From Candidatus Heimdallarchaeota archaeon (lineage in GTDB: Archaea > Asgardarchaeota > Heimdallarchaeia > Heimdallarchaeales > Heimdallarchaeaceae): a stretch of DNA of 64,000 bases. The notes under the pieces are model-generated. The model saw nothing but the letters and a program-made list of their open reading frames with translations. It ran no database searches and was not told where the DNA came from. The DNA lies in assembly GCA_019057375.1 (NCBI GenBank), contig DXJF01000053.1, positions 1 through 64,000 on the forward strand, written 5' to 3'. This document shows, one piece after another, positions 72 to 19,591 of the stretch (position 1 is the stretch's first letter; each line of letters starts with the position of its first letter). Both the position numbers and the translations under genes were made by a program.

Positions 72-1289
72 ATGAGGAAGATCTTCACACTTTGTCTAGT
101 CTTTATTATGCTTTTAACGTCTGTTGGCATGGAATCCAAAGCTTTGAATCATGCTGTTGAAGATTATTCCTTAGTTATTTATACCTATGATTCTCTTCTT
201 GCTGACCCTGGTTATGATTTCATTTCTGGATTCTCAAACTATAGCGGAATTCTTGAAGATGATATACAAGTTATACTGTTATCTGATGCAAATTCAATAG
301 TCACTCAAGCTGCTCTGGAAAAGGATAATCCTGTAGCAGATGTTTTGATTGGGATAGATAATGTTCTAATACATACTGCAAAAGAAGAAGAGATTCTTCA
401 ATCTTATGATTCACCAGCACTGTCAAACATATCTCAGATGATTATAGATAATCTTGATCCTGAGAAATATGTCTTACCTTATGATATGGGCGTTATAGCC
501 TTATGGCATTCAGTAAACAGAATTAATATAACAACTAATCCAGAGTTAGCTAATCTGACATTAGATGATATATTAGATTATGATTTGGCTAAGAAACTGG
601 TTGTTCAGAATCCTAATTTTAGTTCCCCAGGACTCGGTTTTTTACTATGGACAATAGCTGTATATGGAGATTCTAATATAGGTTTTGAAGGATTATTAGG
701 TCAAAATTGGAGAGATTGGTGGAAAGAAGCTAAAAAGGACCTTAGAATAGTTTCAAGCTGGGGAGATGCATTTAGTATCTATTATACTGAAGAAGAAAAT
801 CGACCAATGATGGTTTCTTATGGAACTAGTCCAGCTTATGATGTTTGTCATCCCATCTATGGTGTGGGTGAAGGTAACCCCCCACCTTCAGCAGCATTAC
901 TTTCTCATGAACATAATTTAGATAATGCTTGGTTACAAATTGAAGGAATAGGATTAGTGAATAATTCTCCTCACCCTTATGCTGGTAAACAGTTTATTGA
1001 CTGGTTCTTGAGTAAAGATTTGCAAGATAATATCCCACTAAACAACTGGATGTATCCTGTTCATAATAATGCAACTATTTCCAGCTGTTTTATAGATAAT
1101 TCAATTAATCCAAATGAAGTTGATATTCTTAATAATCTAATATCTTCAGAACTTCTAAAAGAAAATCTGGAGGGGTGGAAGCGTGATTGGAAGACTGAAG
1201 TAGCCCCTTTCAGTAATTTCCTGGGAATTGTTCTATCAATATTAACCGCTTCAATTGCTTATGTTATAATTAAAAAACATAAAAACTGA
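72..1289 (+). CDS. thiB: thiamine ABC transporter substrate-binding protein (ThiB/TbpA family), C-terminally membrane-anchored
   Basis: ThiB-like motifs YTYDS, PxADVLIGIDN, PYDxG, SSPGLGFLLWT, SYGTSPAY, QIEG, NWMYPV; N-terminal signal peptide; C-terminal TM helix with basic tail. Confidence 0.85.
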   Translation: MRKIFTLCLVFIMLLTSVGMESKALNHAVEDYSLVIYTYDSLLADPGYDFISGFSNYSGILEDDIQVILLSDANSIVTQAALEKDNPVADVLIGIDNVLIHTAKEEEILQSYDSPALSNISQMIIDNLDPEKYVLPYDMGVIALWHSVNRINITTNPELANLTLDDILDYDLAKKLVVQNPNFSSPGLGFLLWTIAVYGDSNIGFEGLLGQNWRDWWKEAKKDLRIVSSWGDAFSIYYTEEENRPMMVSYGTSPAYDVCHPIYGVGEGNPPPSAALLSHEHNLDNAWLQIEGIGLVNNSPHPYAGKQFIDWFLSKDLQDNIPLNNWMYPVHNNATISSCFIDNSINPNEVDILNNLISSELLKENLEGWKRDWKTEVAPFSNFLGIVLSILTASIAYVIIKKHKN

Positions 1290-1304
1290 GAAGGCGGTAA
1301 ACAG

Positions 1305-3050
1305 GTGCATAGATCTATTCAAAAGAAAGCTAGAAATTTCGAAGGATTATCAAATAAGTTCATTATTAGCTTGTCAATTATAGCATTAATTTCCTTTCTT
1401 TTAGCCTTTTTTTATATTCCCATAGTTAGAATATTTCAAACAGCATTAAGTTCAGATTCTGGAAATGGTTTTCAGGTTTTTTGGGAAACTCTGAGTGATC
1501 CTTTTAATCTAAAATTCTTGGGTTTTACTTTGTTCCAGGCGTTTTTATCGACTGTACTGTGTTTATTAATTGGATTACCTATTGGATATTTCTTTGCAAA
1601 ATATGAATTTAAAGGAAAAAAACTGATTGTCAATTTGCTCACTATTCCTTTCGTTTTACCACCAGTTATTGTATTAATTGGATTTACAGTTACATATGGT
1701 CAAGGAGGATGGGTAAATCTACTCTGGCAGAATATAACAAATTCTAGCAATGTTCTAGTTGCTATTGACGGAACGGTTCAAGGAATAATCCTCGCACATG
1801 TTTTTTACAACCTTTCTGTAATTATAAGACTAACAATTCCTGCTTGGCAAAATATAGATAATGAACAAATTGAAGTTTCATCAACCCTTGGGGTTGGGAA
1901 AAGTAAAACCTTCCAGAAGATAATCTTTCCACAAATAAAAAATGCAATTATATCCTCATCATTATTAGTTTTCATTTATACATTCAATAGTTTTGCAATT
2001 GTAATGAAGCTAGGAAATTTCAACTTTTATACACTTGAAGTATTAATCTATGAATCATTTGATTTGTTAAAATTTTCAGAAGGAGCTTCCCTTGCTGTGA
2101 TTCAACTAGTTATTAATAGTCTAGTAATAATTCTCTATTTGGTTGTTGAACGTAAATCAAGAAAAATGGCAGAAGGTAAAGAAAAGGGTCTTAAAACTGA
2201 AAGACTCTCTTTAAAAGGAAAAAACTGGAAAAGTATAGTTAGAATATCTCTTTCCATAGTTTTTGTTTTTATTGTGATTCTCTTTTCATTTGCTCCAATT
2301 ATAGCTATCTTTGTAAAATCATTTATTCCAAAATCTTCTGTTGATTCCCCATTTTGGGGATACTCACAGATTTTTACTCAGCAGAAAATAACTCCTCTCA
2401 ATACGAACACGATTAGGCTTTTTGGAAATACCTTGTTGTTTGCTACTGTAGCTGCCGTTATAAGTCTGATACTCTCTGTTTTGATAGTTTTTGTACTTAG
2501 AAATAGATATCATAGTATCAAAAAATACCAAAGATCAGTTTCAGAAAGCTTAGTTTCTTATCTCATAATTCTACCAATGGCAACATCTTCGATAACTTTG
2601 GGATTAGGGCTTTATCTTAATTATAGCGGGTTGAATTCATATTATAATTCAGTCTGGATTTTCATAATAATGTCTCATGTTCTAATCAGTATACCTTTCG
2701 TAACGAGATCAATTTTAGTTGCATATAATCGAATTGATGTTGAATTGTTGAACGTTGCTTCATCTTTAGGAGCTTCTAGAGTGATGGTTTTTAGAAAAAT
2801 TGAGTTTCCATTGATAAAAAGAGGAATTATTGTTGGAGGAATTTTTTCTTTTGCGATTAGTTTAGGAGAATTTGGTGCTACTTTTCTTCTAGCAAGAGCT
2901 AATTATGAAACATTATCAATAGGTATATACAATCTGTTAGGTTCTCAAACACTACAAATTTCAACTGCAATGGCAAGTGTTCTAATATTGATTACAGCTT
3001 TATGTTTCTATTTGATAAACAAATTTGGAGATATTGAATTGAAGGTGTAG
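1305..3050 (+). CDS. thiP: thiamine/iron(III)-type ABC transporter permease (two fused TM modules)
   Basis: about 12 TM helices; LTIPFVLPPVIV, LAHVFYN and two EAA-like loops (EVSSTLG, NVASSLGA); follows thiB; GTG start. Confidence 0.85.
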   Translation: MHRSIQKKARNFEGLSNKFIISLSIIALISFLLAFFYIPIVRIFQTALSSDSGNGFQVFWETLSDPFNLKFLGFTLFQAFLSTVLCLLIGLPIGYFFAKYEFKGKKLIVNLLTIPFVLPPVIVLIGFTVTYGQGGWVNLLWQNITNSSNVLVAIDGTVQGIILAHVFYNLSVIIRLTIPAWQNIDNEQIEVSSTLGVGKSKTFQKIIFPQIKNAIISSSLLVFIYTFNSFAIVMKLGNFNFYTLEVLIYESFDLLKFSEGASLAVIQLVINSLVIILYLVVERKSRKMAEGKEKGLKTERLSLKGKNWKSIVRISLSIVFVFIVILFSFAPIIAIFVKSFIPKSSVDSPFWGYSQIFTQQKITPLNTNTIRLFGNTLLFATVAAVISLILSVLIVFVLRNRYHSIKKYQRSVSESLVSYLIILPMATSSITLGLGLYLNYSGLNSYYNSVWIFIIMSHVLISIPFVTRSILVAYNRIDVELLNVASSLGASRVMVFRKIEFPLIKRGIIVGGIFSFAISLGEFGATFLLARANYETLSIGIYNLLGSQTLQISTAMASVLILITALCFYLINKFGDIELKV

Positions 3051-3052
3051 AA

Positions 3053-4123
3053 ATGGTTAATGTAAAATTAAATAATTTATCTATGAAATACGAAAAAAAG
3101 CTAATAATCGAAAATTTTGAAATCGAAATTCTAGACGGAGAATTACTGGTTCTTCTAGGAGCAAGTGGATGTGGAAAGACGAGTTTATTGAAGATTATTG
3201 CAGGTATAATAGAGCCAGAAGAAGGAACAGTGATTTTTGATGATGAAGATATAACCAACTATACACCTCAAAAGAGAAAAATAGGGTATGTTCCCCAAGC
3301 ACAGGTTCTTTTTCCACATATGAAGGTTGAGCAGAATATCTCCTTTGGTTTAGAAGCTCATAAATTGTCAAAAGAATTGATAAAAGAAAGAATCACATGG
3401 ATTGCAGAGATCACACAAATTCAAGACCTATTGAACAGATTTCCAAGTGAAATTAGTGGTGGACAAAAACAAAGGGTAGCTTTAGCCCGAGCATTAGCAA
3501 TTAAACCAAATTTGTTGCTTCTGGATGAACCACTGTCAAGTATTGATGCTTCTGGTAGAGAATCCCTAGCTTTAACGATAAGAAGAATACAAAAGGAGAC
3601 TGGCATTACAACACTATATGTCACTCATAACCAAGAAGAGAGCAGATTAATTAGCGATAGAGTGGCTCTAATGTATGACGGGAAGATTCAACAAATAGGA
3701 AGTGTAATTGAGGTAGATAGAAATCCTAGAAATTATCTAATAGCCAAGATTATGGGGTCTTCAAATGTTTGGCCAGTTGATTATCTAGAAACTAATAATG
3801 GTAATTCCTTGGTTTCAACTCCAATTGGTTTAATCACTCTTCCTTACGAAGTTAATAGAAAAATAACTGGAATAAGAATACCTCCTTCATCTTTTAAAAT
3901 TGTAAGTACTCTTTCTGAAGATAGCAAAGTTATAGAATTTATTGGTAGAATTAAATCTATCATAGAAAAAGATGATGAAAATTTCAGGATTGTAGTTGAT
4001 CTTAAGGATGCTCATCTTGAATACATCAAAGTTGATTGCAATAAGGAAATGCTTAATATAGTATCTGCAGCAAATAAAGAAATACAACTACAGGTTCTCC
4101 CATCTGAGGTCATTCTAATTTGA
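3053..4123 (+). CDS. thiQ: ABC transporter ATP-binding subunit (ThiQ/PotA-like)
   Basis: Walker A GASGCGKT, signature ISGGQKQR, Walker B LLLLDEP, H-loop VTH; third gene of the operon. Confidence 0.85.
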   Translation: MVNVKLNNLSMKYEKKLIIENFEIEILDGELLVLLGASGCGKTSLLKIIAGIIEPEEGTVIFDDEDITNYTPQKRKIGYVPQAQVLFPHMKVEQNISFGLEAHKLSKELIKERITWIAEITQIQDLLNRFPSEISGGQKQRVALARALAIKPNLLLLDEPLSSIDASGRESLALTIRRIQKETGITTLYVTHNQEESRLISDRVALMYDGKIQQIGSVIEVDRNPRNYLIAKIMGSSNVWPVDYLETNNGNSLVSTPIGLITLPYEVNRKITGIRIPPSSFKIVSTLSEDSKVIEFIGRIKSIIEKDDENFRIVVDLKDAHLEYIKVDCNKEMLNIVSAANKEIQLQVLPSEVILI

Positions 4124-4935
4124 TTCCTGAAAACTTGAAAACTGATATAGAAATAGCAATCATTGAACTATCTAAAAATTATCAGCAATTCAGCTGGCAA
4201 CCTATTGAAAAGGGCTATACGAATGAAAAATATCTAATTTCAGGGAATGAACGAGAGCCTTTAGCTGTCTGCAAAATATTTTCTAAAAATGAAATTTACC
4301 AGTCTGAATTAAGATTTGAACGAGAAAAACACTCCTTAGAACTATTTGGTGGAGACATTGCTCCAAAGATAATCTGGGAGAACAAATCTGGAATTTTAGT
4401 TTATGAATATTTGTTGGGACAGGAGTTGCATTTAGTCGACTATGACCTATTAGATCCTTTGGAAATAACTAACATTATTGAGAAAATTCACCGCAAGTCT
4501 AAACAAAAAAAGAATGCAATTAAAGAAGATGTAATTGAATATTATACAAAAATTGCTCAACTTTATGAGTCTTCAAGTGATGAGTATCCTCCAAAGCTGA
4601 TTGAAAAACTGAAGAAGTTAACCCATGGACAAGTAGAGATTTTAGATGAGTATTCTGAACATTTAACTCACGTTCATGGGGATCTAATACCTGCTAATTT
4701 CATTGTTAATGAAGGTAAAATCAAACTTCTAGATTGGGAATTTTCAAGACCAGAGCTTACATTTTTTGATTTCCAGTATTTTAATTACTATGCTGAAGCA
4801 CATGATATTCCCGTTAGGTTGAACATTAAAGCCGAGATTAAAAATTTCTATTCTGATATTATTGATGTTCTTGAACGACTTTGGCGACATGGGTATTTGA
4901 AGAAGAATAAAAGTATCTTCTATCACATTGATTAA
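4120..4935 (+). CDS. APH/choline-kinase family phosphotransferase, candidate thiamine kinase
   Basis: GYTN loop, Brenner motif HGDLIPAN, LLDWEFS; 4-nt overlap with thiQ implies translational coupling; TTG start. Confidence 0.75.
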   Translation: MIPENLKTDIEIAIIELSKNYQQFSWQPIEKGYTNEKYLISGNEREPLAVCKIFSKNEIYQSELRFEREKHSLELFGGDIAPKIIWENKSGILVYEYLLGQELHLVDYDLLDPLEITNIIEKIHRKSKQKKNAIKEDVIEYYTKIAQLYESSSDEYPPKLIEKLKKLTHGQVEILDEYSEHLTHVHGDLIPANFIVNEGKIKLLDWEFSRPELTFFDFQYFNYYAEAHDIPVRLNIKAEIKNFYSDIIDVLERLWRHGYLKKNKSIFYHID

Positions 4936-4973
4936 CCCTAAATATATAAAAACAAGTTAGGTTTCTCTTTTCT

Positions 4974-6191
4974 ATGGAAGCTGAAATTGTTTATTTTGAT
5001 CCATCTGTTCCTAAATTCTTAGCATCTAAAATTTTGAAAACTTTATGGAAAAAAGTAGTTTTTTCTCGTATGGGACCTATCATTCATAAGAAAAACTATT
5101 CCTTTGAATTAGAAAATCCGAATGAAGTTCTTACTAAAACTCTTATAGGTGGAATTTGTGGATCAGATTTGCATCTTATTGATCTGGATTTTGCTTTAAA
5201 TGTTGCACCTACGATTGTTCCTTCACCCTCTCCTAGACATATGGGTCATGAGTGTGTATGTCAAATTGTGGAAATAGGTAAGGAAGTTTCTAAATTGAAA
5301 AAAGGGGATAGAGTTGTTGTACAAAAAGGTCCATCTTGTTTTCTGCACCAACAAGATAATCTATGTCCTCGATGTGATGAAGGCGATTTCTGGTTATGTG
5401 AAAAAGCAGGACAGTTTGCAGACTTTACTGAATATGATGCAGCAGGTGGTTGGGGAACAGGTTTCAAATATCATGAAAATCAACTGGTTGCTCTACCAGA
5501 TGAAATTACTAATGATCAAGCAGTCTTAATTGAACCTCTTTCTTGTTCTCTACGAGGAGTTTTAAGAGCTAAACCACAAGCTGAAGATAATGTACTAGTT
5601 ATTGGTGCTGGAACAATTGGATTGTGCACTCTAGCAAGTATTAAAGCTATAAACCCTGATGCAAATACATCTGTTATGGCTAAATATGATTTTCAAGCTG
5701 AAGCAGCAAGAAAACTTGGGGCTGATGAAGTCATAATAGGTAAAAATATTGAAGATTACTTGGAGGATAAAACAAACGCAGTAAAATATCAAGGGTACTT
5801 TAGTAATAAAACATTTTTAGGTGGATTTGATATAATTATTGATTGCGTAGGAACAGCTTCAACAATCCAAAATTCGTTGAGATGGGCCAAAGGAAAAGGG
5901 AAGGTGATGGTACTAGGTATTGATTTGAAACAAGGTAAGTTGGATTATACGTCAGTATGGTATCAAGAAGTAGACTTGTTAGGGTCTTTAATCCATGGAA
6001 CTGAAGACTGGAAAGGAGAAAAGAAATCAACATTTGAAATTGTTATTGAATTGCTTAAAACCAAAAAGATTCCTCCTTCAATATCGGAAATTATTACTCA
6101 CAGATACAGTATATCTGAATTCAGAGAAGCAATTAAAGTTGCTTTCAATAAGAGAAAAAGTCATGCAATTAAAGTTATCTTCGATTATTAG
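4974..6191 (+). CDS. zinc-dependent medium-chain alcohol/sugar dehydrogenase (MDR family)
   Basis: GICGSDLH, GHE, structural-Zn cysteine cluster, LIEPLSC, Rossmann GAGTIG. Confidence 0.9.
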   Translation: MEAEIVYFDPSVPKFLASKILKTLWKKVVFSRMGPIIHKKNYSFELENPNEVLTKTLIGGICGSDLHLIDLDFALNVAPTIVPSPSPRHMGHECVCQIVEIGKEVSKLKKGDRVVVQKGPSCFLHQQDNLCPRCDEGDFWLCEKAGQFADFTEYDAAGGWGTGFKYHENQLVALPDEITNDQAVLIEPLSCSLRGVLRAKPQAEDNVLVIGAGTIGLCTLASIKAINPDANTSVMAKYDFQAEAARKLGADEVIIGKNIEDYLEDKTNAVKYQGYFSNKTFLGGFDIIIDCVGTASTIQNSLRWAKGKGKVMVLGIDLKQGKLDYTSVWYQEVDLLGSLIHGTEDWKGEKKSTFEIVIELLKTKKIPPSISEIITHRYSISEFREAIKVAFNKRKSHAIKVIFDY

Positions 6192-6193
6192 AC

Positions 6194-9100
6194 TTATTTT
6201 TCGAGCTCTTGAGCAGCTAAAATTATTTTAGTTGCTTGTCTTCTAATTTGACTAATTTGTTCTCGAATTTCTTCTAAAGGTTTCTTCTTTACCAACAGAG
6301 ACTTCAACTGGTCGATATGTGAATGTAAGAATTCTTGGTAAGCTAATAACAATGTACCAAATTCTAAATCAGTTAAGACTGTAATTAATAAATTCTCAAA
6401 TCCACCCCTAGCTTTTTCGTTCTTCAGTTGAATTCCATGAATATAACCTAACATTGATTCATTTGGAAGAGTAATAGAACCAAGTCTTCGTCCTTGAATT
6501 GTTTCTTCAAATCCTAATGCAGAAAACGCTTGATCTCCCACTTTTAATATGAAATTTTCAACTTCTAAAGTCATTCTAGAACCATATTCATAACCTAAAG
6601 AATGCTCTGTAATTATAGGAACTGCACCCCTACGTTGGTCAAAGATGGTTAGAAATCCTCCAGGACATAATTCATTTAGTTTCATTGTCACATCTTGATC
6701 TTGTATTTTTGACAAGATTATCTCAAATGGTGTAGATTTAACTGTTCGATAAACAATGAAAGAAACTATCGCTAAAGCTAAAACACTTCCTCCAATTATA
6801 ACATATAATAACCAGCTCGCTAGAACAGGAGGTTTAATAGTTATAATAATTTCCTCTGAATCCTTAACAATAGAATCAAAAATAGAATCTCCTTCAAAAG
6901 ATGTTGAAAAGGTTATATAATCTATTTCCTCTGTCATTTCAAATGAAACTGATGCTAGTCCATTTGTGTCTGTTGTATCAGTCAAGTTCTCTATATAATC
7001 ATGATTTCCATTAGCAGCATAAACATTAGATACACTTGATTTATAGAAAATATAGATTATAAATCGAATTTCTAGTCCTTGGACAGGAGTTCCATTTTGG
7101 TATGTGAGTGATGCAATTAGTACTAGTTGTGAACCCTCAATAATCTCCAGACTAGAAGCTTCTACAGTTAGTATAAGAGTTAATGGTATAACTTCGTAAT
7201 CAAACGAAAAGGAATCGTTGGTTTCGCCATAGTAGAAATCAGATTCAGCTTTTATTAGTAAAGTGTAATCCCCCTTAGTTATTCCATGTAAATATGGATA
7301 GAATTCAAAAGAATAAACATTGCTTCCCATATCTTGGAATACAACGAGTTGACTATTAACATAGATGTTTTTGATGATCAATTCATTCAATAACTCATCC
7401 TCAAGTGTTATATTTACTTTGAAACTCTTCCCATATAGAATTGAAACGTCATTTTCCAGAATCGTTAAACTTCCTTCTTTTCTTCCAATATCTAGACTAA
7501 CAACCATTGTGTGTCTTTTTACTCCTAATTGAGAGAATTCGAAAACTAAATCTGTTAGACCAATATTGTTCGCATAAATTGAAAATTCAAAAGTTATATT
7601 ATCAATTGTATTGTTTAAAACTATTAAATTCAAATTGTTGTTCAAACTTTCATTATGCCAGATTAAATTAGATACAGAAGTATTATCCAAACCATCAAAG
7701 ATTGATATTGTGAAGTTGAAAGTGTCTTTGTAACTTAATTGATGAGTTTGACTTAATAAATCGATTGGGTCAAGTACATCTATAGTTATATCATCTATAA
7801 AGAAATTGAAGGTTTTAACAATTGAATTAGAAGAGGTTAGATTTCCTGTGTTGTCATTCAGTGTAATAGTTAAATTATGGAAACCATCTGAAGTTGGAGA
7901 ATTAACTATCCATGTAGTCTCATTGGTTGGAGCATCTTCTTCTATATCCCAATAATAAAATGATGTATAGTAATCACTACTAATATTTGTGAACCAAATT
8001 TCTGCATTTCCACGAATTGCATATAGGTCAACATTATTGATTTCTACCCATTGAGTTAAATCTTCATCATAAATGAAAGCATCAAAATTTGGAGGTTCGA
8101 TATCTATGATAAAACTGAAACTATAGGTTTGATTATTTCCTACAATGTCTTCAGCAAAAATTGACAAAAGCGCTATAGAACCATTCGAATATAATACCTC
8201 AACTGGACCTTCTAAATCTACTTCTCCTAGAATTGAAGGATAAAGATTCTGCCAGAATCCAGGGAGTGCATCCCAAGAATATTTTACTGTTTTTAGTGTA
8301 TGTTCTGATATATCTTCTACAAGAAGCGATATTGTAGTTATATTATTGATTTTTGTAAATTCAGTGATTGTTTCTGAATCTAGTTCTACCTCCGGTTCTT
8401 GACTGTCAATGGTCAGAACAATTGGTATTATTGCTGCTTCATTTCCTAAGGAATCACTTGCATTAATATACAATGTTGAGGTTCCATCAACGAAATTTAA
8501 GATGAAAGAATCAGTGAAATTATCATAAACAGATCCTACCCATGAGAATGTACTAAGTATTTGACTATCATCATCTAAAATTGAAACAGTAACTAAAGAA
8601 TCAGCAGGTATATAGTAGATTCCATGTGCTTCAACTAAGGCATCAATACTAAGAATTTCAATTGTGGGTGCTAAAGTGTCTATGGTGATAATAAACGATA
8701 TAGTGGCATAGTTATTTGCTATATCAGATACAAAGAGAGTTAGATTGTAGGTTCCATCTAAAAGCTCTAGAAGATCAAATTCATGTGGGTAAATTAATGT
8801 TTGATTTTCTATTCCATCAATTGACATAATTACATCTAATTGTGAAAGTGAAGTAAAATTATCGTTAAAAGTAAATTCTAGAACATCAGAGTTTAAAAAT
8901 CTCTTATTGTTATACTCATCCTTACTAGTAAGAATCTCAGGAGCTTCTTGATCTAAAGTAAATTTAAACAAAAAGACATGCTCCTCATCAAAAGTGTCGA
9001 ATGTTCTGATTGTCAAATAATGTTCTCCAACAGGAAAATCTGGAAGAACATTAGTTTCATTTAAGAATAATGTTGAATTGAAATAATAAGCATCCTTAGT

Positions 9101-10885
9101 TCCATTTAGTTCTCCATTAGAGTTCCATTCAAACATTATCGTACCATTTATACCTGTGAGGGTAACTTCAATAATCTCTCCTCCTTGATAGTATGAATCG
9201 TCGTTAGCATTTCTCAATTCAACTAACAATGCATTAATATTTGATGTAAACCGATACTTAAGACTGATAGCATTCCCATAATTATCTATAGCAGAAACAT
9301 AGAGCAGGTGTTGACCAGAAGATTCAGGCAAATAAGTTCTATAGATGGTTCCATCAAATGGATACCAAGTGAAATTATCCCTAGTATCCCACTTATAGTA
9401 TGCTTGAACTACTCCTCCAGGATCTGTGATATTAACATCTATACCTTTTCCAGCTGGTTGTAGGGTATTATTAACTAAATTGACAAGCTCAATATTAGGC
9501 GTTGTCCCATCAAATTCAAAAACATAAAAGAATACTTCAGTACCAAAATCATCGAATGTTCTAATCGTGAGATTGTGCAAACCTGAGAATGCTGGTGCAA
9601 TTATTTCATATTCTGGTGACGTTAAATTCGTTTGCGTTCCACTTAGATCCCATTCATAAGTAGCATAATCTATACTAAAGACATTAAAATCTATTATATC
9701 TCCCTCACCAATTACAGAATTGTTGTTTGGGCTTTGAAGAACTACATTGATTGTTGATACATCGTAACCAATTTGATAAATTAAGGTTTCATTATTGTTA
9801 TATTCATCTAATGCGCGTATTTCTAGATTATGCCATCCCATAGTAAATGGTAAATTTGTGGTTGTTGAAGTGTCAAAACTTGTGAATGATCCAAAATCCC
9901 ATCTGTAAGCGCTATCTACAGCTCCAGATACATCAATTGAAATGGTTTTGTTTTCTTGATAAACTGTATTATTTGCAAAACCAGAAACAGAAATATCTGG
10001 GTAAGAAGAATCAAACATTTTAAACTGAACACCTAGCAAATAATCTGTTTTAGCAATATTATAATTATTTGAGTACTCACCATCATTAATACTCCAAACT
10101 AAATTTCCAGGACCTTGATCTCCTGCTAAAAGATACATTCTTCCAGTTCTTTCTAGTGTTGAAAGTTTAGCTTCATAAACTATTTTGAGTCTGAAACCAG
10201 CAGGAATTGTAACAGGAGAACTTAAAGTTGAGCTATATGTTTTCTGTTGTGTGGACATCTGTTCGGGAAGAACATCTACTATAGACAATATTTCACTTGT
10301 GGAAGAATCTGTAGAATTGAAAAGTAAAAGTCTAATTCTGAAAGTAACTACTTGGGTTCCTTCTCCACTAGTAAAATCAGTGCTTAGGAAAGTCATAAAA
10401 TGAACTTTGCCATCAATATAGGTTTCATCTTCAAAAACAGGACTAAACATTGCAGATGCTGGATAGGGCCAATCTCTATCTTTTAAATAATAATAAGTCT
10501 CATTTTGATCAGGCCAAAGGTCTGGGTTTAATTGATAGCTACTATCGATTCTGTGATTAAGTAAATGAGGACTATCCCATCCTTCATCTTCTATATCCTC
10601 GTAAGTTACCCACTCTACAACTTCTCCATCAGAATCTATATCAATAAAATCTTCTTGCGAAAAGAATCCTCTCAATTGATAATCTCCAGGAGTTTCTATT
10701 TTCTTAATCTTGTAATTTAACACTTCATCAGGTGTTTCTAATTCCTTCTCATCAATTGTGTCAGAGACATTATCGAAAAAACTATCTTCTTCTATCTCTG
10801 ATATTGTCGGTACATAATATATAGATGAACTTAAACATACTAAAATTAATAAAATAGAATATGCTGATGAAGCTTTCTTCTGCAT
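6194..10885 (-). CDS. 1563-aa single-pass surface protein: signal peptide, Ig-like beta repeats, TM helix, cytoplasmic uDENN/longin-like domain
   Basis: hydrophobic N-terminus; recurring YxWD...GxHxLxIxxxD units rich in N/T/D/S; TM WLLYVIIGGSVLALAIVSFIVY; tail with IFDQRRGAVP and KARGG. Confidence 0.8.
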   Translation of the reverse strand: MQKKASSAYSILLILVCLSSSIYYVPTISEIEEDSFFDNVSDTIDEKELETPDEVLNYKIKKIETPGDYQLRGFFSQEDFIDIDSDGEVVEWVTYEDIEDEGWDSPHLLNHRIDSSYQLNPDLWPDQNETYYYLKDRDWPYPASAMFSPVFEDETYIDGKVHFMTFLSTDFTSGEGTQVVTFRIRLLLFNSTDSSTSEILSIVDVLPEQMSTQQKTYSSTLSSPVTIPAGFRLKIVYEAKLSTLERTGRMYLLAGDQGPGNLVWSINDGEYSNNYNIAKTDYLLGVQFKMFDSSYPDISVSGFANNTVYQENKTISIDVSGAVDSAYRWDFGSFTSFDTSTTTNLPFTMGWHNLEIRALDEYNNNETLIYQIGYDVSTINVVLQSPNNNSVIGEGDIIDFNVFSIDYATYEWDLSGTQTNLTSPEYEIIAPAFSGLHNLTIRTFDDFGTEVFFYVFEFDGTTPNIELVNLVNNTLQPAGKGIDVNITDPGGVVQAYYKWDTRDNFTWYPFDGTIYRTYLPESSGQHLLYVSAIDNYGNAISLKYRFTSNINALLVELRNANDDSYYQGGEIIEVTLTGINGTIMFEWNSNGELNGTKDAYYFNSTLFLNETNVLPDFPVGEHYLTIRTFDTFDEEHVFLFKFTLDQEAPEILTSKDEYNNKRFLNSDVLEFTFNDNFTSLSQLDVIMSIDGIENQTLIYPHEFDLLELLDGTYNLTLFVSDIANNYATISFIITIDTLAPTIEILSIDALVEAHGIYYIPADSLVTVSILDDDSQILSTFSWVGSVYDNFTDSFILNFVDGTSTLYINASDSLGNEAAIIPIVLTIDSQEPEVELDSETITEFTKINNITTISLLVEDISEHTLKTVKYSWDALPGFWQNLYPSILGEVDLEGPVEVLYSNGSIALLSIFAEDIVGNNQTYSFSFIIDIEPPNFDAFIYDEDLTQWVEINNVDLYAIRGNAEIWFTNISSDYYTSFYYWDIEEDAPTNETTWIVNSPTSDGFHNLTITLNDNTGNLTSSNSIVKTFNFFIDDITIDVLDPIDLLSQTHQLSYKDTFNFTISIFDGLDNTSVSNLIWHNESLNNNLNLIVLNNTIDNITFEFSIYANNIGLTDLVFEFSQLGVKRHTMVVSLDIGRKEGSLTILENDVSILYGKSFKVNITLEDELLNELIIKNIYVNSQLVVFQDMGSNVYSFEFYPYLHGITKGDYTLLIKAESDFYYGETNDSFSFDYEVIPLTLILTVEASSLEIIEGSQLVLIASLTYQNGTPVQGLEIRFIIYIFYKSSVSNVYAANGNHDYIENLTDTTDTNGLASVSFEMTEEIDYITFSTSFEGDSIFDSIVKDSEEIIITIKPPVLASWLLYVIIGGSVLALAIVSFIVYRTVKSTPFEIILSKIQDQDVTMKLNELCPGGFLTIFDQRRGAVPIITEHSLGYEYGSRMTLEVENFILKVGDQAFSALGFEETIQGRRLGSITLPNESMLGYIHGIQLKNEKARGGFENLLITVLTDLEFGTLLLAYQEFLHSHIDQLKSLLVKKKPLEEIREQISQIRRQATKIILAAQELEK

Positions 10886-10969
10886 GAAATCCCCTTATAT
10901 AATAAATTATGTCATTTACTCTAATAAATCTTAATATACTCACAATAAAAACAGGGTAATTATTGATAT

Positions 10970-11512
10970 TCAGACGTCAATACTGCTTATTACTTCAAAG
11001 ATAGTTTCATCATAAATTGATGTTTGAAACATAACTGAATCAAACGTTTTACCTACATTAAAAGTACTTTTAATTTCATTGAGAATTTCAGATTTCTTTT
11101 CCTCTGCAACTAAATCAATTTTATGAGCTAAAATAGTGATTTTAGCATTATTGTTATACTCTAGAGCAAGTGAACATGCTTGGTTATAGTAATAAAGAGC
11201 TTTCAGAAAATGATGACGTTGTGAAGAATCAATAACAAAAATCAGATTTTTTACATCTGAATAAACACTTTCTTTAAAGTTTGAAAATGATTCTTCTAGA
11301 AATGGAATTTGTCCTCCAACTTCAAAAACACTAATAATTTTTCCTGAAAAATCTATTTTCTTCTTTTTAATACGTCCTGTTGCTTGATTCTTTAAAGTAG
11401 ACTCAGGTAGAATACCCTCAAAAACTACTTGAATAATTGATGTTTTTCCTGATTGTGAAAGTCCGACAAAAAGAATCTTTTCTACATGATCTTCTGTGCT
11501 TATGTAGTTCAT
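10970..11512 (-). CDS. Rag/Gtr1-like small GTPase, G-domain only
   Basis: G1 GLSQSGKT, switch I QATG, G3 FEVGGQ, G4 HKID, G5 TSIYDETI resembling RagA TSIWDET and RagC TSIYD. Confidence 0.85.
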   Translation of the reverse strand: MNYISTEDHVEKILFVGLSQSGKTSIIQVVFEGILPESTLKNQATGRIKKKKIDFSGKIISVFEVGGQIPFLEESFSNFKESVYSDVKNLIFVIDSSQRHHFLKALYYYNQACSLALEYNNNAKITILAHKIDLVAEEKKSEILNEIKSTFNVGKTFDSVMFQTSIYDETIFEVISSIDV

Positions 11513-11914: not shown

Positions 11915-12487
11915 ATGGATTCAATGAGTGATGAAGAAAAGCCAAAAAAGCTTGTTTTTCAGTTTGATACTACCAGTATTCTAGACATTGTAGGAAAATG
12001 GTTTGAATCTAAGATGATCCATTATAGTGATGAAATGTTCAGTGATTACTATGAACATGTTAAAGGGAGACTTCTAACAAGTGAAAGTTTCAACGATTAT
12101 CTCTTACTCAGGGTTAATGAGCTAATTTTCAAACTATTAGGAGACTACCATGGAAAGAAGAAAGAGACTTACAAAGATGTGGCAGAGGAAGAGGATGAAC
12201 TGGTCCCTCAGTGGTTCTTAACTGAAAGATATAATGAAATTCAAGAAATGTTTTCATCAAAATTCTTCAAACATTCATTTACAGAAGTAGACATTGAGTA
12301 TGATAGTGCGATGAAAATATTCAATGCAACCCTTTATTTAGAGAAGGAAATTGATAGTAGTAGCTATGAAATTCTTTTGAACGATGTTCGCTCATATCTA
12401 AAAAATAGAATAACCTTATTGAATTTCAATCATGGAAAAGTTCTAGGTCCTAATATTCTAGAGATTACTTTTGGAATTGATTGGTAA
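11915..12487 (+). CDS. hypothetical protein, acidic
   Basis: 190-aa ORF with normal codon pattern; no recognisable motif. Confidence 0.75.
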   Translation: MDSMSDEEKPKKLVFQFDTTSILDIVGKWFESKMIHYSDEMFSDYYEHVKGRLLTSESFNDYLLLRVNELIFKLLGDYHGKKKETYKDVAEEEDELVPQWFLTERYNEIQEMFSSKFFKHSFTEVDIEYDSAMKIFNATLYLEKEIDSSSYEILLNDVRSYLKNRITLLNFNHGKVLGPNILEITFGIDW

Positions 12488-15447: not shown

Positions 15448-17619
15448 TTATTCTAATTTTGAAAGTAGTAAATCTGTTATTAGTAACTTATCATAAATTT
15501 CTTCATACATTGCTATCAAAGATTCTGTGGTTAACTCTCTTTCAAAATCTCTTTTCTGTATTTCTTCAATACTTCTTCTTGTCCATATTCGGCTGATAAA
15601 GCTATAAATTCCTTTCAAAAATAACCAGATAATCATTGGAATGAGCTTAATCAAAAATTTGAAACCTTTTTTAAAGATTTCAGCAAAATCAATATTCAAA
15701 TCTCTTTTCCAACTGAATGTTTTTCCTCGTTTCTGAACGTTATCATAGGTTGTGGTTAATGTTTCAGATATTTCCTTAAATCTTTGAGAGAAGAATTTGA
15801 TTATTTTTCTTGTACCTATAGAAATTATTGCTCTAAATGAATAAATAATTACATGTCTAATATATTTATAGAAAATGTATAACAGCATTCCAAAGGGCAT
15901 AAAAGGCGCAATAAGAGAAATTCCCAATTTCTGTCCTAATTTTCTATACCAAGGTCTATAGGTAAATTCATCCTTGATAAACTGTTGAGCACCAAGAGCT
16001 AATGCAATTGCTAATTTATTATATTCAACATCTGGCATTATTTGTTTGTATTTTACTTGCTGTTTTGCAACTCCCTTAAGGGCTCCTGTAATAAGAACAG
16101 ATGAAAAAAGGTCGTAGCTTATATACCCTTCCTCTATTTTTGTAAGAATCACTTTGAATGCTTTTTCAACTTCTTTTCGACTCATATTATTCTTCTTTGC
16201 AAATCCTGCTTTAGCTTCTTGTCTCATCCATGGAAAAATAGAGGATTCTTTAGACCAGATAATTAAAGCAAAAGTCCTTCCAGTTTGCTTAGTTATTTTT
16301 GAAATATCTAACTCATTTAATGATAATTCAGCTTCAGTTAGTAGTTTTTCTAAGTTATTTTTCGACCTTTCCGGAACGTTTCTTGGATCAAGAGAAAGAA
16401 GCTGTTGAACTTTTTGTTTCATAGCATCTACTTCCTCCATAATTTCTAATCTAAAATCCACCAACGTTTCCGTAGATACTGGTGGAGCATCAAAGAAGCT
16501 GAAAGAGGATTTTGCAGCATGGTAGGGTAAAGAGAAGAAGTTTTCTAAAGTTCTGTAAATGTTTGCCCAGCGATATGCTCCCCATCTCATAAGATATAAG
16601 CTGCATTGATGGAATAAAGCGTAAATAGGACCAAAAATTGTAGCAATCCAGGAAACAACAAGTAATCCTGTTCCAAAGAGAGTAATTGTCCAGATAGGTT
16701 TAATATTAAACCAATATTCAAATACATATAGTAAATCAAGATATCTTAAATAGTTGGGAGAACCTAAAGGACCGAGAGTAGACAATTGCTCAAATGTAAA
16801 GAAAAAGATAGCATAGCCAATACGGAATATCCTGACAACAAGTGTAGGGATTGCAATTATAATAATCGGAGTTCCAATCGCTACATTGATTACTTCACCA
16901 AACGCTCTCCTAATAGGATAAGCTTTCATCATTCTTTGTTCTCTTAGAACTATTTCGTCCAATTCCTGCGAAACTTCTAGAATTTCTTTAGATTTTTTAC
17001 CAGAAAGAAAATTAGCAACTGTTACAGCATATTTTCTGTACATCTGAAGCAAGGGGACTAATTCTCTTAAACCTCTGGGAACAATTATGTCAAATAATAT
17101 TAGACTTAACTTTCCAAAAGCTGTAACAATAGTGAAAAGAACTGCTAGAATAATGAATGAAATTTTAATCAATTCAGGGAATACCTTGACTTCTAAAGTT
17201 TGCCAAAAAGCTTTCAATTTCTTTATAGTATATTTTCTTAGTTTGGGAGGGTATATTATATAGAAGAAAATCTTCAGAAATTTTAAAATAGGCCAGATAA
17301 AAATGTAGTATTCAAGCAGGAGTAAGAATCCAATCGGAGTATAGTAGTGAAAAACATATTCATTCAGAAAAATCCATAATTCCTTACTTTTGATTTTGAA
17401 CCAAATCCAAAATTTTCCAGCCCCCTTTTGTAGTTTTTCTTGAAATGAAATGGAAGTTTTTTTTATTTTTTCAATTTGTTTGAATCCAAATTCTTTGATC
17501 CGCGAAGAAAAACCTATCTTTTTTCGTTCATCAATTTCAATTGTTGGTTTTTCCTTGTTTGACATTTCAAAACCCTTTCTTACTAAATCAATGATTCTTC
17601 TGTTAGATTTTTTACTCAA
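15448..17619 (-). CDS. uncharacterised membrane protein, paralogue 2 (longer N-terminus and loop)
   Basis: PRGLRELVP, AYPIRR, FGPIYALFH, WGAYRW, LENFFSLPY, ESLIAMYEEIYDK. Confidence 0.85.
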   Translation of the reverse strand: MSKKSNRRIIDLVRKGFEMSNKEKPTIEIDERKKIGFSSRIKEFGFKQIEKIKKTSISFQEKLQKGAGKFWIWFKIKSKELWIFLNEYVFHYYTPIGFLLLLEYYIFIWPILKFLKIFFYIIYPPKLRKYTIKKLKAFWQTLEVKVFPELIKISFIILAVLFTIVTAFGKLSLILFDIIVPRGLRELVPLLQMYRKYAVTVANFLSGKKSKEILEVSQELDEIVLREQRMMKAYPIRRAFGEVINVAIGTPIIIIAIPTLVVRIFRIGYAIFFFTFEQLSTLGPLGSPNYLRYLDLLYVFEYWFNIKPIWTITLFGTGLLVVSWIATIFGPIYALFHQCSLYLMRWGAYRWANIYRTLENFFSLPYHAAKSSFSFFDAPPVSTETLVDFRLEIMEEVDAMKQKVQQLLSLDPRNVPERSKNNLEKLLTEAELSLNELDISKITKQTGRTFALIIWSKESSIFPWMRQEAKAGFAKKNNMSRKEVEKAFKVILTKIEEGYISYDLFSSVLITGALKGVAKQQVKYKQIMPDVEYNKLAIALALGAQQFIKDEFTYRPWYRKLGQKLGISLIAPFMPFGMLLYIFYKYIRHVIIYSFRAIISIGTRKIIKFFSQRFKEISETLTTTYDNVQKRGKTFSWKRDLNIDFAEIFKKGFKFLIKLIPMIIWLFLKGIYSFISRIWTRRSIEEIQKRDFERELTTESLIAMYEEIYDKLLITDLLLSKLE

Positions 17620-17620
17620 G

Positions 17621-19591
17621 TTATTTTACAAGATATTGACTTATATGTTTTTGTGCATCCCTTTTTTCGTCTTCATTTATTTTAAACAAACCATAAACTA
17701 AATCGTCTACTTCCTCATCTACTGAGGAAATCAATTCTTCATGCTTAAGCAAAATGTTCACTTTCAGAACAAGCAATTCATTTAGTTGATCGTTAGGTAC
17801 TATAAAAGGTAAATCATGAAGATACATAGGAAGATAATGTAGATATTTTCCAGTTATCTCAGTACTTGAATACATTATAGAATACAAAAAGCTGAACAAT
17901 TCGGAATTTAAAAGAGAAAGAATAAGTTCAAGACTAATGTTTAAGTCCTTAGCTTTTTGAGTCAAGTGTCCTAGTAAGAAAATATCTTTACAAACATAAC
18001 CCTCAGTATCTAGTGTTGCTCTCATCCTTAGGGCATGTTGACATATAATTATCTTCTTTGATGTAAATATATCAATTTCAGGAAAGTTATTCTTCATTCC
18101 TTTTGCTTTCTCATGATCATAGTCCAAATAGTAACCTTTCCAGTTAATACCATATCGTTCAACTTCTCTATTTCCACCAAATGGTTTACCACCTAGAAAT
18201 TTCCTGGATTTAGTACTAATTGATTTTTCAAATACAAAATGTTCTCGTAATCCTCTCCGATGGAATGAAATTGACCATCTAAATCTAACTAAATCTCCTA
18301 ACCTATATTCAGAGTCATTGTAAATCTTCTCTATTATTGAAAGGGAAGTTGAATCTGGAAGAAAAATGGTTTTGTTTGTAGTTTTATGAAAAAAATCTGC
18401 AGAAACATATTTACACTTTGATTTGATGTTCATTGTTTGTAATTCTTCATAATCGACGTTTTTGGCGAGTTTGATAGTATCATCATTCAATCTATTCTTA
18501 TCTAAAATAAGTATGATAGGATAAACAGCTGGACGAAAGACATTTTGATGAGTTATATCAACAATTTCTGAAATAAGATTATGTTCAAGGAAATATCTTC
18601 TCATTTCTTTTGAATATCTTGAACTAAGAAATTTACTGGGGATTATATATCCAAGTTTTCCATTAGCTTTTAGCAGATCTGTACCAAGTTCTAAAAAGCA
18701 AGAATAAACATCAAAATGCCCTCTAGCAGCTTTAGGGAAATTAAGTAAGCAAATCTTCTTAATCAGTTTATCCATCCGTTTTGCTTCAATATAAGGTGGG
18801 TTACCAACTACAAAATCATACCTCTGATTCTTTGCTTTCCTAACTTCAAAAATATCTTTCTCTCCTTGTTTGTCCACAGAGTTTGTTAGATAAATGTTAG
18901 GAGTGAAGGATATTTCTAAATTATATCTCTCTTTAAATCGTTCAATTAGTATTAGTGATATATTAAATTTAGAGATATAGACTGCTAGCGGGTCAATATC
19001 AAATCCAAAAACATACTTTTGAATATAATTTGATATTTCATTTACAGTGAATTTTTCTTTATTTTGCTCAATCAGTAAGTCTATTGCTTGCGCTAGAAAT
19101 AATCCTGAACCTGATGATAAGTCAATAATATTTTGTGTATCAATTATAGAATATCTGTTAGGAAATCCTACTTGATGAAGAATGTAATTTATTACGGAAA
19201 TTGGAGTAAAAACTATTCCTTTTCCTTGCTTAGCTGTTTTTGTTAAAATCTTCTGATATAGATTCCCTAAAGGGTCCAAACCAATTTTATTGCCGAACTT
19301 ATTTCTTATTTCAATTATTTTAGGGTAGATCTGAGAAAATTGGTCATATTTTTCAATATCATATAAAGAAGGGAAAGCTCTCGAAATCTTTGAGATTTTC
19401 TTCTTAAAAGATAGAGTAGGTTCAATCAGGTTGTATTTTTCAGCACAGGATGTCAGATATAAACCCCCAAGAACCTTGAAGCTTCTTAACAGCTCATCTT
19501 CATCAAAGAGCTTGTTCTTTAGAATCAAGTTATTAATTTGAAAAAGAATTTCTTCAAGATGATTAAGAGAACCCAATAGATTATCAGACAT
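17621..19591 (-). CDS. N6-adenine DNA methyltransferase (Eco57I/TaqI-like gamma class) with C-terminal specificity domain
   Basis: GIVFTP, motif I DLSSGSGLFL, GFDIDP, motif IV GNPPY; TaqI_C-like tail ILSLLNSELF. Confidence 0.9.
   Translation of the reverse strand: MSDNLLGSLNHLEEILFQINNLILKNKLFDEDELLRSFKVLGGLYLTSCAEKYNLIEPTLSFKKKISKISRAFPSLYDIEKYDQFSQIYPKIIEIRNKFGNKIGLDPLGNLYQKILTKTAKQGKGIVFTPISVINYILHQVGFPNRYSIIDTQNIIDLSSGSGLFLAQAIDLLIEQNKEKFTVNEISNYIQKYVFGFDIDPLAVYISKFNISLILIERFKERYNLEISFTPNIYLTNSVDKQGEKDIFEVRKAKNQRYDFVVGNPPYIEAKRMDKLIKKICLLNFPKAARGHFDVYSCFLELGTDLLKANGKLGYIIPSKFLSSRYSKEMRRYFLEHNLISEIVDITHQNVFRPAVYPIILILDKNRLNDDTIKLAKNVDYEELQTMNIKSKCKYVSADFFHKTTNKTIFLPDSTSLSIIEKIYNDSEYRLGDLVRFRWSISFHRRGLREHFVFEKSISTKSRKFLGGKPFGGNREVERYGINWKGYYLDYDHEKAKGMKNNFPEIDIFTSKKIIICQHALRMRATLDTEGYVCKDIFLLGHLTQKAKDLNISLELILSLLNSELFSFLYSIMYSSTEITGKYLHYLPMYLHDLPFIVPNDQLNELLVLKVNILLKHEELISSVDEEVDDLVYGLFKINEDEKRDAQKHISQYLVK

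Follow-up and report, generated by a model that had tools for sequence, protein, structure and literature searches.

In a 64,000-nucleotide (nt) stretch of a Candidatus Heimdallarchaeota archaeon genome (assembly GCA_019057375.1, contig DXJF01000053.1, positions 1 to 64,000 of the forward strand; the whole stretch is called the window here), we analyzed a pair of co-oriented open reading frames (ORFs), both intact: one for a receptor-like protein of 1563 amino acids (aa), P0001, and one for a 180-aa Rag/Gtr-like GTPase, P0002. An earlier sequence-only reading had proposed that the receptor carries a cytoplasmic tail of the folliculin type, acting as GAP (GTPase-activating protein) on the neighbouring GTPase. 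The two ORFs, their shared orientation and the 84-nt gap between them are exactly as it had described them (Table 1). A T5 run and a TATA-like stretch rich in A/T lie in the spacer, as does AGGGGA, 8 nt ahead of the receptor ATG. We found 16 full-length homologues of the receptor, in Asgard/Heimdall records; the source records of the named homologues are labelled Asgard group or Heimdallarchaeota.

Table 1. Coordinates of the receptor-GTPase pair in the window and of the second receptor locus of the same assembly (L006, contig C37 20000-39000)
Feature	Position	Strand	Remarks
Rag/Gtr-like small GTPase P0002, 180 aa	10970..11512	(-)	upstream of receptor
Spacer from GTPase stop to receptor start, 84 nt	10886..10969	(-)	sequence read directly
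Receptor-like type I membrane protein P0001, 1563 aa	6194..10885	(-)	stop codon 6194-6196
Signal-like hydrophobic segment, aa 1-28	10802..10885	(-)	hydropathy window from residue 10
Ectodomain, aa 29-1352	6830..10801	(-)	Ig-like repeats (Big_13, Big_3_3, PKD-like), sequons, Cys count
Single transmembrane helix, aa 1353-1380	6746..6829	(-)	hydropathy
Predicted cytoplasmic longin domain and flanking helices, aa 1396-1563	6197..6700	(-)	AlphaFold2 model, fold matches, hhalign
FDQRRGAVP, aa 1415-1423, end of beta1, loop and start of beta2	6617..6643	(-)	putative counterpart of the "GP motif" of GAP longins
ARGGFEN, aa 1492-1498, beta4-beta5 hairpin; R1493 codon 6407-6409	6392..6412	(-)	candidate arginine finger
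Second receptor, 1589 aa	L006 7289-12058	(-)	
Ras-like ORF, 260 aa, directly upstream of second receptor	L006 12061-12843	(-)	stop 3 nt from receptor start
686-aa protein with N-terminal Rag-like G domain, downstream of second receptor	L006 5119-7179	(-)	
Convergent Rag-like GTPase, 416 aa	L006 3849-5099	(+)	

The hydropathy profile of P0001 shows two hydrophobic segments only, at residues 10-28 and 1353-1380, the second followed by YRTVKS. N-x-S/T sequons number 37 in the ectodomain, against 17.9 +/- 3.7 in shuffles of the ectodomain, and one in the tail. The signal-like segment, the single transmembrane (TM) helix and the cytoplasmic tail that had been read from the sequence are thus borne out by hydropathy and by the distribution of sequons, and by its make-up P0001 is predicted to be a glycosylated type I single-pass archaeal surface protein. 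The ectodomain is acidic, has no Cys at all, and matches the immunoglobulin (Ig)-like Pfam families Big_13 (3.1e-09) and Big_3_3 as well as, weakly, PKD. Pfam and NCBIfam assign no family to its first 300 residues, and a feature search of the ESM Atlas with the N-terminal 270 residues of P0001 returned nothing usable. Conservation is higher in the tail than in the ectodomain (for instance 58% vs 34% in the homologue P0012).

An ectodomain that consists of Ig-like repeats of the adhesin type, densely set with glycosylation sequons and lacking a sensor domain, together with relatives that are adhesin-like in reaching 10,431 aa and in occurring as tandem arrays, would suit an inside-out arrangement: P0001 would mainly be an adhesin or a surface-layer component, and the GTP-bound GTPase would bind the tail as an effector site, controlling the clustering, turnover or placement of the protein. 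We consider this improbable, since an effector site would have no need of the conserved finger-type arginine and GP loop described below.

We modelled the tail with AlphaFold2, using an alignment of 17 tails. The model is confident (pLDDT 89.9, pTM 0.85), and its elements follow the order alpha (27-37), beta-beta, alpha, beta-beta-beta, alpha-alpha-alpha, with helix 2-13 corresponding to the C-terminal end of the TM helix. Searched with Foldseek against the PDB, it retrieved on top the longin of a Lokiarchaeota Roadblock-Longin protein (8yqg, E 4e-06), then the Lst4 longin and FLCN-FNIP2. Alignment with VIA-align gave Z scores of 13.2 for 8yqg, 12.2 for Lst4, 12.0 for 8dhb_J (FLCN in the active GAP complex; root-mean-square deviation 3.0, 136 residues aligned), 11.7 for 6nzd_H, 11.6 for C9orf72-SMCR8 and 9.9 for GATOR1. 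An exhaustive, Foldseek-independent search of 48,161 representative chains placed the same four on top (Z 12.7, 11.9, 11.7 and 11.6), with the AP, SNARE and TRAPP longins in the next tier (Z 8-9.7) and roadblocks lower (Z 6-7.5). Since the model and both structure searches agree, we assign the tail, as modelled, to the longin domains, and within them closest to the class forming GAP complexes (8yqg, Lst4, FLCN, C9orf72-SMCR8); whether the tail would model as a longin fold had been set beforehand as a check, and it did, nearest to the FLCN/Lst4/C9orf72-SMCR8 class. Pfam and NCBIfam assign the window tail to no family. A feature search of the ESM Atlas with the tail, taken as a source of leads only, gave an Asgard cluster as best match (0.89) and, at 0.83, a cluster in which 19% of the members carry NPR2.

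We also weighed a roadblock/MglB identity of the tail, and did not retain it, as roadblock chains align over about 100 residues with Z scores (6-7.5) well below those of the longins. The tail model has an N-terminal helix as well as C-terminal helices.

Both motifs on which the sequence-only reading relied, FDQRRGAVP and ARGGFEN, are found at the places it had claimed, as is the codon of R1493. We followed them in 107 non-redundant tails, obtained from two protein searches and 45 fetched loci, some of them only 25-30% identical to the window tail. Conservation of the arginine in homologues, another check set beforehand, turned out to be complete: R1493 is present in 107/107 tails, as is N1498, with E1497 in 106/107 and G1494 in 105. 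In the model the arginine lies between strands 109-119 and 127-137, which form the beta4-beta5 hairpin. At the beta1-beta2 turn, F1415, Q1417, G1420 and P1423 are each kept in 104/104 tails; position 1421 is Pro in 83 and Ala in 21 of the 104, the window protein being among the latter (G-A-V-P), so that the family consensus reads F-D-Q-x-x-G-[P/A]-x-P. A GP motif at the start of beta2 and an arginine finger are common to FLCN, NPRL2, SMCR8 and C9orf72 and absent from non-GAP longins (PMC12290439, Traffic 2025). Both were also found in a class of Asgard longins, for which an ArfR or Rag partner was left as a question (PMC12290439). The arginine finger of human FLCN is Arg164 (PMC9473554).

Sequence profiles link the receptor tails to the Folliculin family of Pfam (PF11704). 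Among 33 receptor-tail relatives, 13 match this family below threshold, the best with 20.2 bits (E 5.5e-4) against a curated cut-off of 23.3. These matches always span beta4-ARGG-beta5-alpha (profile positions 51-103), and Pfam families other than Folliculin recur in two at most of the 33. Of 400 Asgard genomes, 61 encode soluble proteins (180-490 aa) that match PF11704 above the cut-off, and none of 14 control genomes does so; the motifs F-D-[DE]-x-x-G-P and A-R-G-G stand in them at a spacing equal to that of the receptor tails. Aligned with hhalign to 12 such soluble Asgard proteins, the receptor tails match over 115 columns (probability 97.3%, E 2.2e-11). The two sets are in register at the ARGG columns as well as at the GP columns, and the G-A-V-P columns of the window protein fall on GP. 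Since hhalign aligns the ARGG columns, R1493 is predicted to be equivalent to the conserved Arg of the Pfam-defined Folliculin-family longins.

The identity of the neighbouring ORF as a Rag/Gtr-like GTPase, also proposed before, is consistent with all searches made with P0002. Its Pfam match to Gtr1_RagA is far stronger than that to Arf (1.3e-36 vs 3.4e-12), and all 23 of its 23 matches among the sequences of solved structures are Rag/Gtr or Asgard Rag-like proteins, human RagA being the best (4e-23) and RagA, Gtr1 and RagC/D standing at the top. The motifs are G1 GLSQSGKTS, G3 EVGGQ, G4 HKID (HKxD) and G5 TSIYDE, the last two conserved and of the Rag type, and the catalytic Gln68 of switch II is invariant. 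By these signatures P0002 is a putative Rag-like GTPase. It consists of a G domain alone, 180 aa long, with neither a C-terminal roadblock domain nor a membrane anchor; eukaryotic Rags dimerise through their roadblock domain.

The pairing of receptor and GTPase recurs in other genomes. A small GTPase (174-184 aa) followed by a co-oriented receptor is found in L007 (a 153-kb contig of a genome assembly), in L008 (a metagenome contig with different other flanking genes), in L009 and in L064/L065, where the GTPase is 53% identical and the receptor, broken off at the contig end, 54% identical. In a survey of neighbours, 40 loci were fetched and scored with tail and GTPase profiles, of which 34 were informative, non-duplicate and outside family f5; the locus L049 (G066) was left out as the intended tail match had not been captured, and L038 was too short to inform. 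A Rag-like GTPase gene lies directly beside the receptor, or beside a tandem receptor array, in 27 of the 34 informative loci. In the commonest layout, one to three receptors are followed by a co-oriented protein of 550-690 aa, whose N-terminal part is a Rag-like G domain, and then by a Rag-like protein of about 410 aa in convergent orientation. The synteny of the pair elsewhere, a further point that the sequence-only reading had left to be checked, is thus borne out, both by these 27 loci and by the four occurrences of the small-GTPase pair.

In a tree of the tails, the clade that holds the window protein has five members (SH-aLRT 88), and in four of them the small GTPase lies upstream; the 25 tails with a long downstream GTPase cluster together as well. 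Neighbour labels change 7 times on this tree, vs 22.9 times in shuffles, a figure that measures clustering and not independent events, since relatives share labels. The type of neighbour tracks the phylogeny of the tail. The tail itself was found in 64 of 400 genomes of the phylum, including 9/12 and 20/22 genomes of two other families of the class. In the window's own family, the receptor-tail form is present in 21/30 genomes and the soluble PF11704-positive form in 0/30; the tethered form may therefore be the only folliculin-type longin there.

A second receptor, 36% identical to P0001, is encoded on another contig of the same assembly (3.47 Mb, 89% complete), and its gene is also surrounded by GTPase-like ORFs (Table 1). 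In the model of the convergent 416-aa protein (pLDDT 70), the G domain is followed by a roadblock-like alpha-beta-beta-alpha-beta-beta-beta-alpha unit, and the conserved end is rich in Cys and His; an alignment of about 300 columns links the protein to full-length RagA and Gtr1 (E 2.6e-14). As a whole, the locus resembles a GTPase pair of Rag architecture beside a longin-tailed receptor. The whole genome has five ORFs that match the GTPase profile at E < 1e-30, three of which flank the two receptor genes. Since three of the five strong Rag-like ORFs lie in these places, the adjacency of receptor and GTPase is beyond chance.

It could still be argued that the adjacency is incidental, the longin tail serving the sorting or secretion of a surface protein in the manner of SNARE or adaptor longins, with no relation to the GTPase. 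Seven of the 34 informative loci and all eight f5 loci have no GTPase gene in view, which speaks for such an explanation and against a GAP dedicated to its neighbour, and in MK-D1 the GTPase genes generally lie outside operons with longin genes (Tran et al., PMC10933270). We nevertheless consider an incidental arrangement very improbable: a GTPase neighbours the receptor in the other 27 loci, the pair survives a change of context (L008 vs L007) and occurs in two receptor subfamilies, so large a share of the strong Rag-like ORFs of the genome flanks its two receptors, and SNARE and AP longins are structurally more distant from the tail.

The f5 loci (L040-L047, genomes G056-G071) have an organization of their own, a conserved operon of three genes. 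Its first gene codes for a giant longin-tailed protein, whose open frame gives 2000 to more than 10,000 aa. The product of the second gene, about 1540 aa long, has a longin tail too, of a different subclade, and that of the third, about 1000 aa long, has no Pfam match. We did not find a GTPase gene within the fetched range of these loci. The presence of two tail subclades in one operon suggests that the tails may form heterodimers. A different situation is seen in L011 (G039:C4, 2143-4091), whose receptor tail is the closest relative of the L007 tail. No GTPase ORF is in view there, and approximately 1.9 kb upstream of the receptor lack a long ORF; the GTPase gene may have been lost or broken at this locus.

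Around the window pair itself, a group of genes convergent with the receptor (72-6191, plus strand) encodes an ABC transporter (binding protein, fused permease and ATPase), a choline/ethanolamine-kinase-like protein and a zinc alcohol dehydrogenase. The receptor of L007 is flanked by the same ABC transporter, kinase-like and alcohol dehydrogenase genes. On the other side, a 190-aa ORF without Pfam match (11915-12487, plus strand) is divergent from the GTPase gene. It has 65% identity to a 187-aa ORF that occupies the matching place in L064, beside an EamA transporter gene, and L007 also has a 187-aa ORF at this position. Since this ORF is absent from L008, it probably reflects local synteny only. 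Further along lie an Eco57I/TaqI-type (type IIG-like) restriction-modification methylase (17621-19591, minus strand; Eco57I 9.1e-33) and, after it, a 723-aa ORF without Pfam match (15448-17619, minus strand).

To the structure and neighbourhood of the pair we added a predicted complex of two tails with the GTPase, GTP and Mg. It reached an ipSAE of 0.60 (0.60, 0.60 and 0.52 in the individual runs) vs 0.01 for the best control; the runs had at least 84% of contacts in common, with a pLDDT of at least 87 for the partner. In the calibration, 58 of 80 solved complexes and 2 of 110 mismatched pairs attained the ipSAE mark; of those 80, only 7 had values of 0.60 or less, as did the two mismatches above the mark. 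Similar complexes have been solved, and likeness to them may feed the score. The verdict is that the prediction gives weak support to binding between tail and GTPase.

The grade of this prediction is one of several points, besides the loci without a GTPase gene, that weigh against a folliculin-type GAP acting on the neighbouring GTPase. The window tail does not match PF11704 at E <= 1, and profiles of 17 and of 33 tails found chance matches only among all solved-structure sequences. P0001 ends about 70 residues past beta5, in three helices, which leaves no DENN domain. We did not find an FNIP-like gene or an evident non-catalytic partner subunit near the window receptor, and all tail copies keep the Arg, unlike eukaryotic heterodimers, which have one catalytic subunit. 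In the GTPase, the Asp of G3 (Walker B, residues 63-68) is changed to Glu (EVGGQ) in 10/10 orthologues of P0002; its sister clade (about 191 aa) keeps DVGGQ. The ectodomain has no recognizable ligand-binding or sensor module, Pfam finding Ig-like families only.

We conclude that the receptor tail is homologous to FLCN/SMCR8/NPRL2-type longins. Given the missing DENN domain, the lack of an FNIP-like gene nearby, the position of the window copy below Pfam detection and the Arg in every copy, it is not folliculin proper. The folliculin-type tail of the sequence-only reading therefore stands in part: it is upheld by the longin fold, the invariant Arg and the homology detected by hhalign, and it does not extend to a DENN domain, to a Pfam Folliculin match or to a strict G-P, in place of which the window protein has G-A-V-P.

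Moreover, dimers of longin and roadblock domains are general platforms for GTPases, and mostly act as guanine nucleotide exchange factors (GEFs) or scaffolds, not as GAPs (PMC10933270). This favours another explanation, in which the tail is a non-catalytic platform that anchors the GTPase, in the manner of Ragulator or SR-alpha/SR-beta, or a GEF, like TRAPP, Mon1-Ccz1 and the DENN longins, with the Arg serving binding or stability. A platform would suit a GTPase that has neither a membrane anchor nor a roadblock domain of its own, and the synteny and the weak support from the complex fit binding as well as they fit catalysis. However, the Arg and the G-x-x-P, both invariant here, are reported to be specific to GAP longins and absent from GEF and scaffold longins (PMC12290439), and the fold of the tail is nearer to FLCN, Lst4 and C9orf72 than to TRAPP, AP and roadblock by 2-5 Z units. 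We regard a non-catalytic platform or GEF as unlikely, although it is the alternative that we take most seriously.

The best reading of the tail is a folliculin-type GAP for the neighbouring GTPase or, failing that, its docking platform. In its full form, towards which we lean with some reserve, P0001 is a membrane-anchored folliculin-type longin GAP for P0002, for which we infer catalysis by R1493, dimerisation and coupling to the ectodomain. The longin tail of about 170 aa would sit at the membrane's inner face and would probably be dimeric, like 8yqg and the known longin GAPs (all of the latter, to our knowledge). There it would bind P0002, the soluble Rag-like product of the gene 84 nt upstream. 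From the beta4-beta5 hairpin, beside the G-x-x-P loop, the invariant R1493 would enter the nucleotide pocket and complement in trans the switch II Gln68 of the GTPase, resulting in faster GTP hydrolysis. The ectodomain, by its state or clustering when it meets a ligand, a surface or another cell, would then set where and when the GTPase is off.

In nutrient signalling, Rag and Arf GTPases are controlled by the GAPs folliculin, GATOR1 and C9orf72-SMCR8, which have links to kidney cancer, epilepsy and amyotrophic lateral sclerosis/frontotemporal dementia. FLCN-FNIP1/2 and yeast Lst7-Lst4 (GAPs for RagC/D and Gtr2; PDB 8dhb, 6nzd, 6ulg, 4zy8) resemble the receptor tail in the longin fold (Z 11.7-12.2), in a probable G-P-type motif at the beta1-beta2 turn, in the A-R-G on the beta4-beta5 hairpin and in a Rag-family GTPase as likely partner, and the tail relatives give their sub-threshold matches to Pfam Folliculin over the very segment of the Arg. 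In contrast to these systems, here there is neither DENN domain nor FNIP-like partner, the longin is the C-terminal tail of a 1563-aa surface glycoprotein instead of part of a soluble complex recruited to the lysosome, the partner is a bare G domain without the roadblock dimerisation domain, and the window tail, with its G-A-V-P, is below Pfam detection. C9orf72-SMCR8 (an Arf/Rab GAP) and the NPRL2-NPRL3 subunits of GATOR1 (a RagA/B GAP) are also longin-dimer GAPs with a GP motif and an Arg finger (Z 11.6 and 9.9), the finger being R147 in SMCR8 and R78 in NPRL2. Both are large soluble heteromers with the finger on one subunit, whereas here the Arg is present in every copy (107/107).

Among prokaryotic systems, the protein of 8yqg is the best structural match (Z 12.7-13.2 over 140-143 residues, with 18% identity); it comes from an Asgard archaeon and is dimeric, but it is soluble and composed of two domains. 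MglA-MglB also pairs the gene of a prokaryotic small GTPase with that of a regulator from the roadblock/longin superfamily; MglB, however, is a soluble roadblock protein without an Arg finger, and matches the tail more weakly (Z 6.3-6.6). The Asgard longins described as "FLCN/SMCR8-type" (PMC12290439) have the same motifs and fold class and come from the same archaeal group, and hhalign relates the receptor tails to soluble Pfam-positive members with the score given above. Their description includes no membrane fusion and leaves the partner GTPase open (ArfR or Rag), whereas here we find a giant ectodomain, a TM helix and Rag-like gene neighbours. The paper covers 15 Asgard longins, and the word "transmembrane" does not occur in it (PMC12290439). 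FLCN-like longin-DENN proteins have also been reported in Asgard archaea, together with NPRL2-like longins that are fused to two-component domains and lie beside a non-Rag GTPase (Liu et al., bioRxiv 10.1101/2020.10.19.343400). In our literature search we did not find a description of a giant single-pass surface protein with a folliculin-type longin tail, nor a report of the pairing of such a receptor with Rag-like GTPase genes. Asgard longins with a GP motif and Arg were already known (2025); the receptor fusion and the pairing with Rag-like genes appear to be new.

The gene neighbourhood points to a partner, a Rag-like GTPase, for a class of longins whose partner was left open by the 2025 survey of Asgard longins. 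It is difficult to tell from genome layout which regulators belong to which Asgard GTPases (Tran et al., PMC10933270), and the receptor-Rag family is a clear exception to this difficulty. Both members of the minimal pair, a tail of about 170 aa and a G domain of 180 aa, are easy to express, so that the origin of the longin-GAP mechanism can be put to a direct test. That the tail is fused to a giant single-pass glycoprotein suggests that receptor-coupled signalling through small GTPases, usually deemed eukaryotic, exists in the closest archaeal relatives of eukaryotes. Our results suggest that the folliculin-Rag switch is older than eukaryotes and was wired to the cell surface. Going further, and as a doubtful proposal only, the ancestor of this switch might have been a surface receptor-GAP of the Heimdall group, with a finger-bearing longin suspended from a giant surface glycoprotein, that switched off a soluble Rag-like GTPase upon events outside the cell, and the lysosomal nutrient-sensing module of eukaryotes would then be its internalised descendant.

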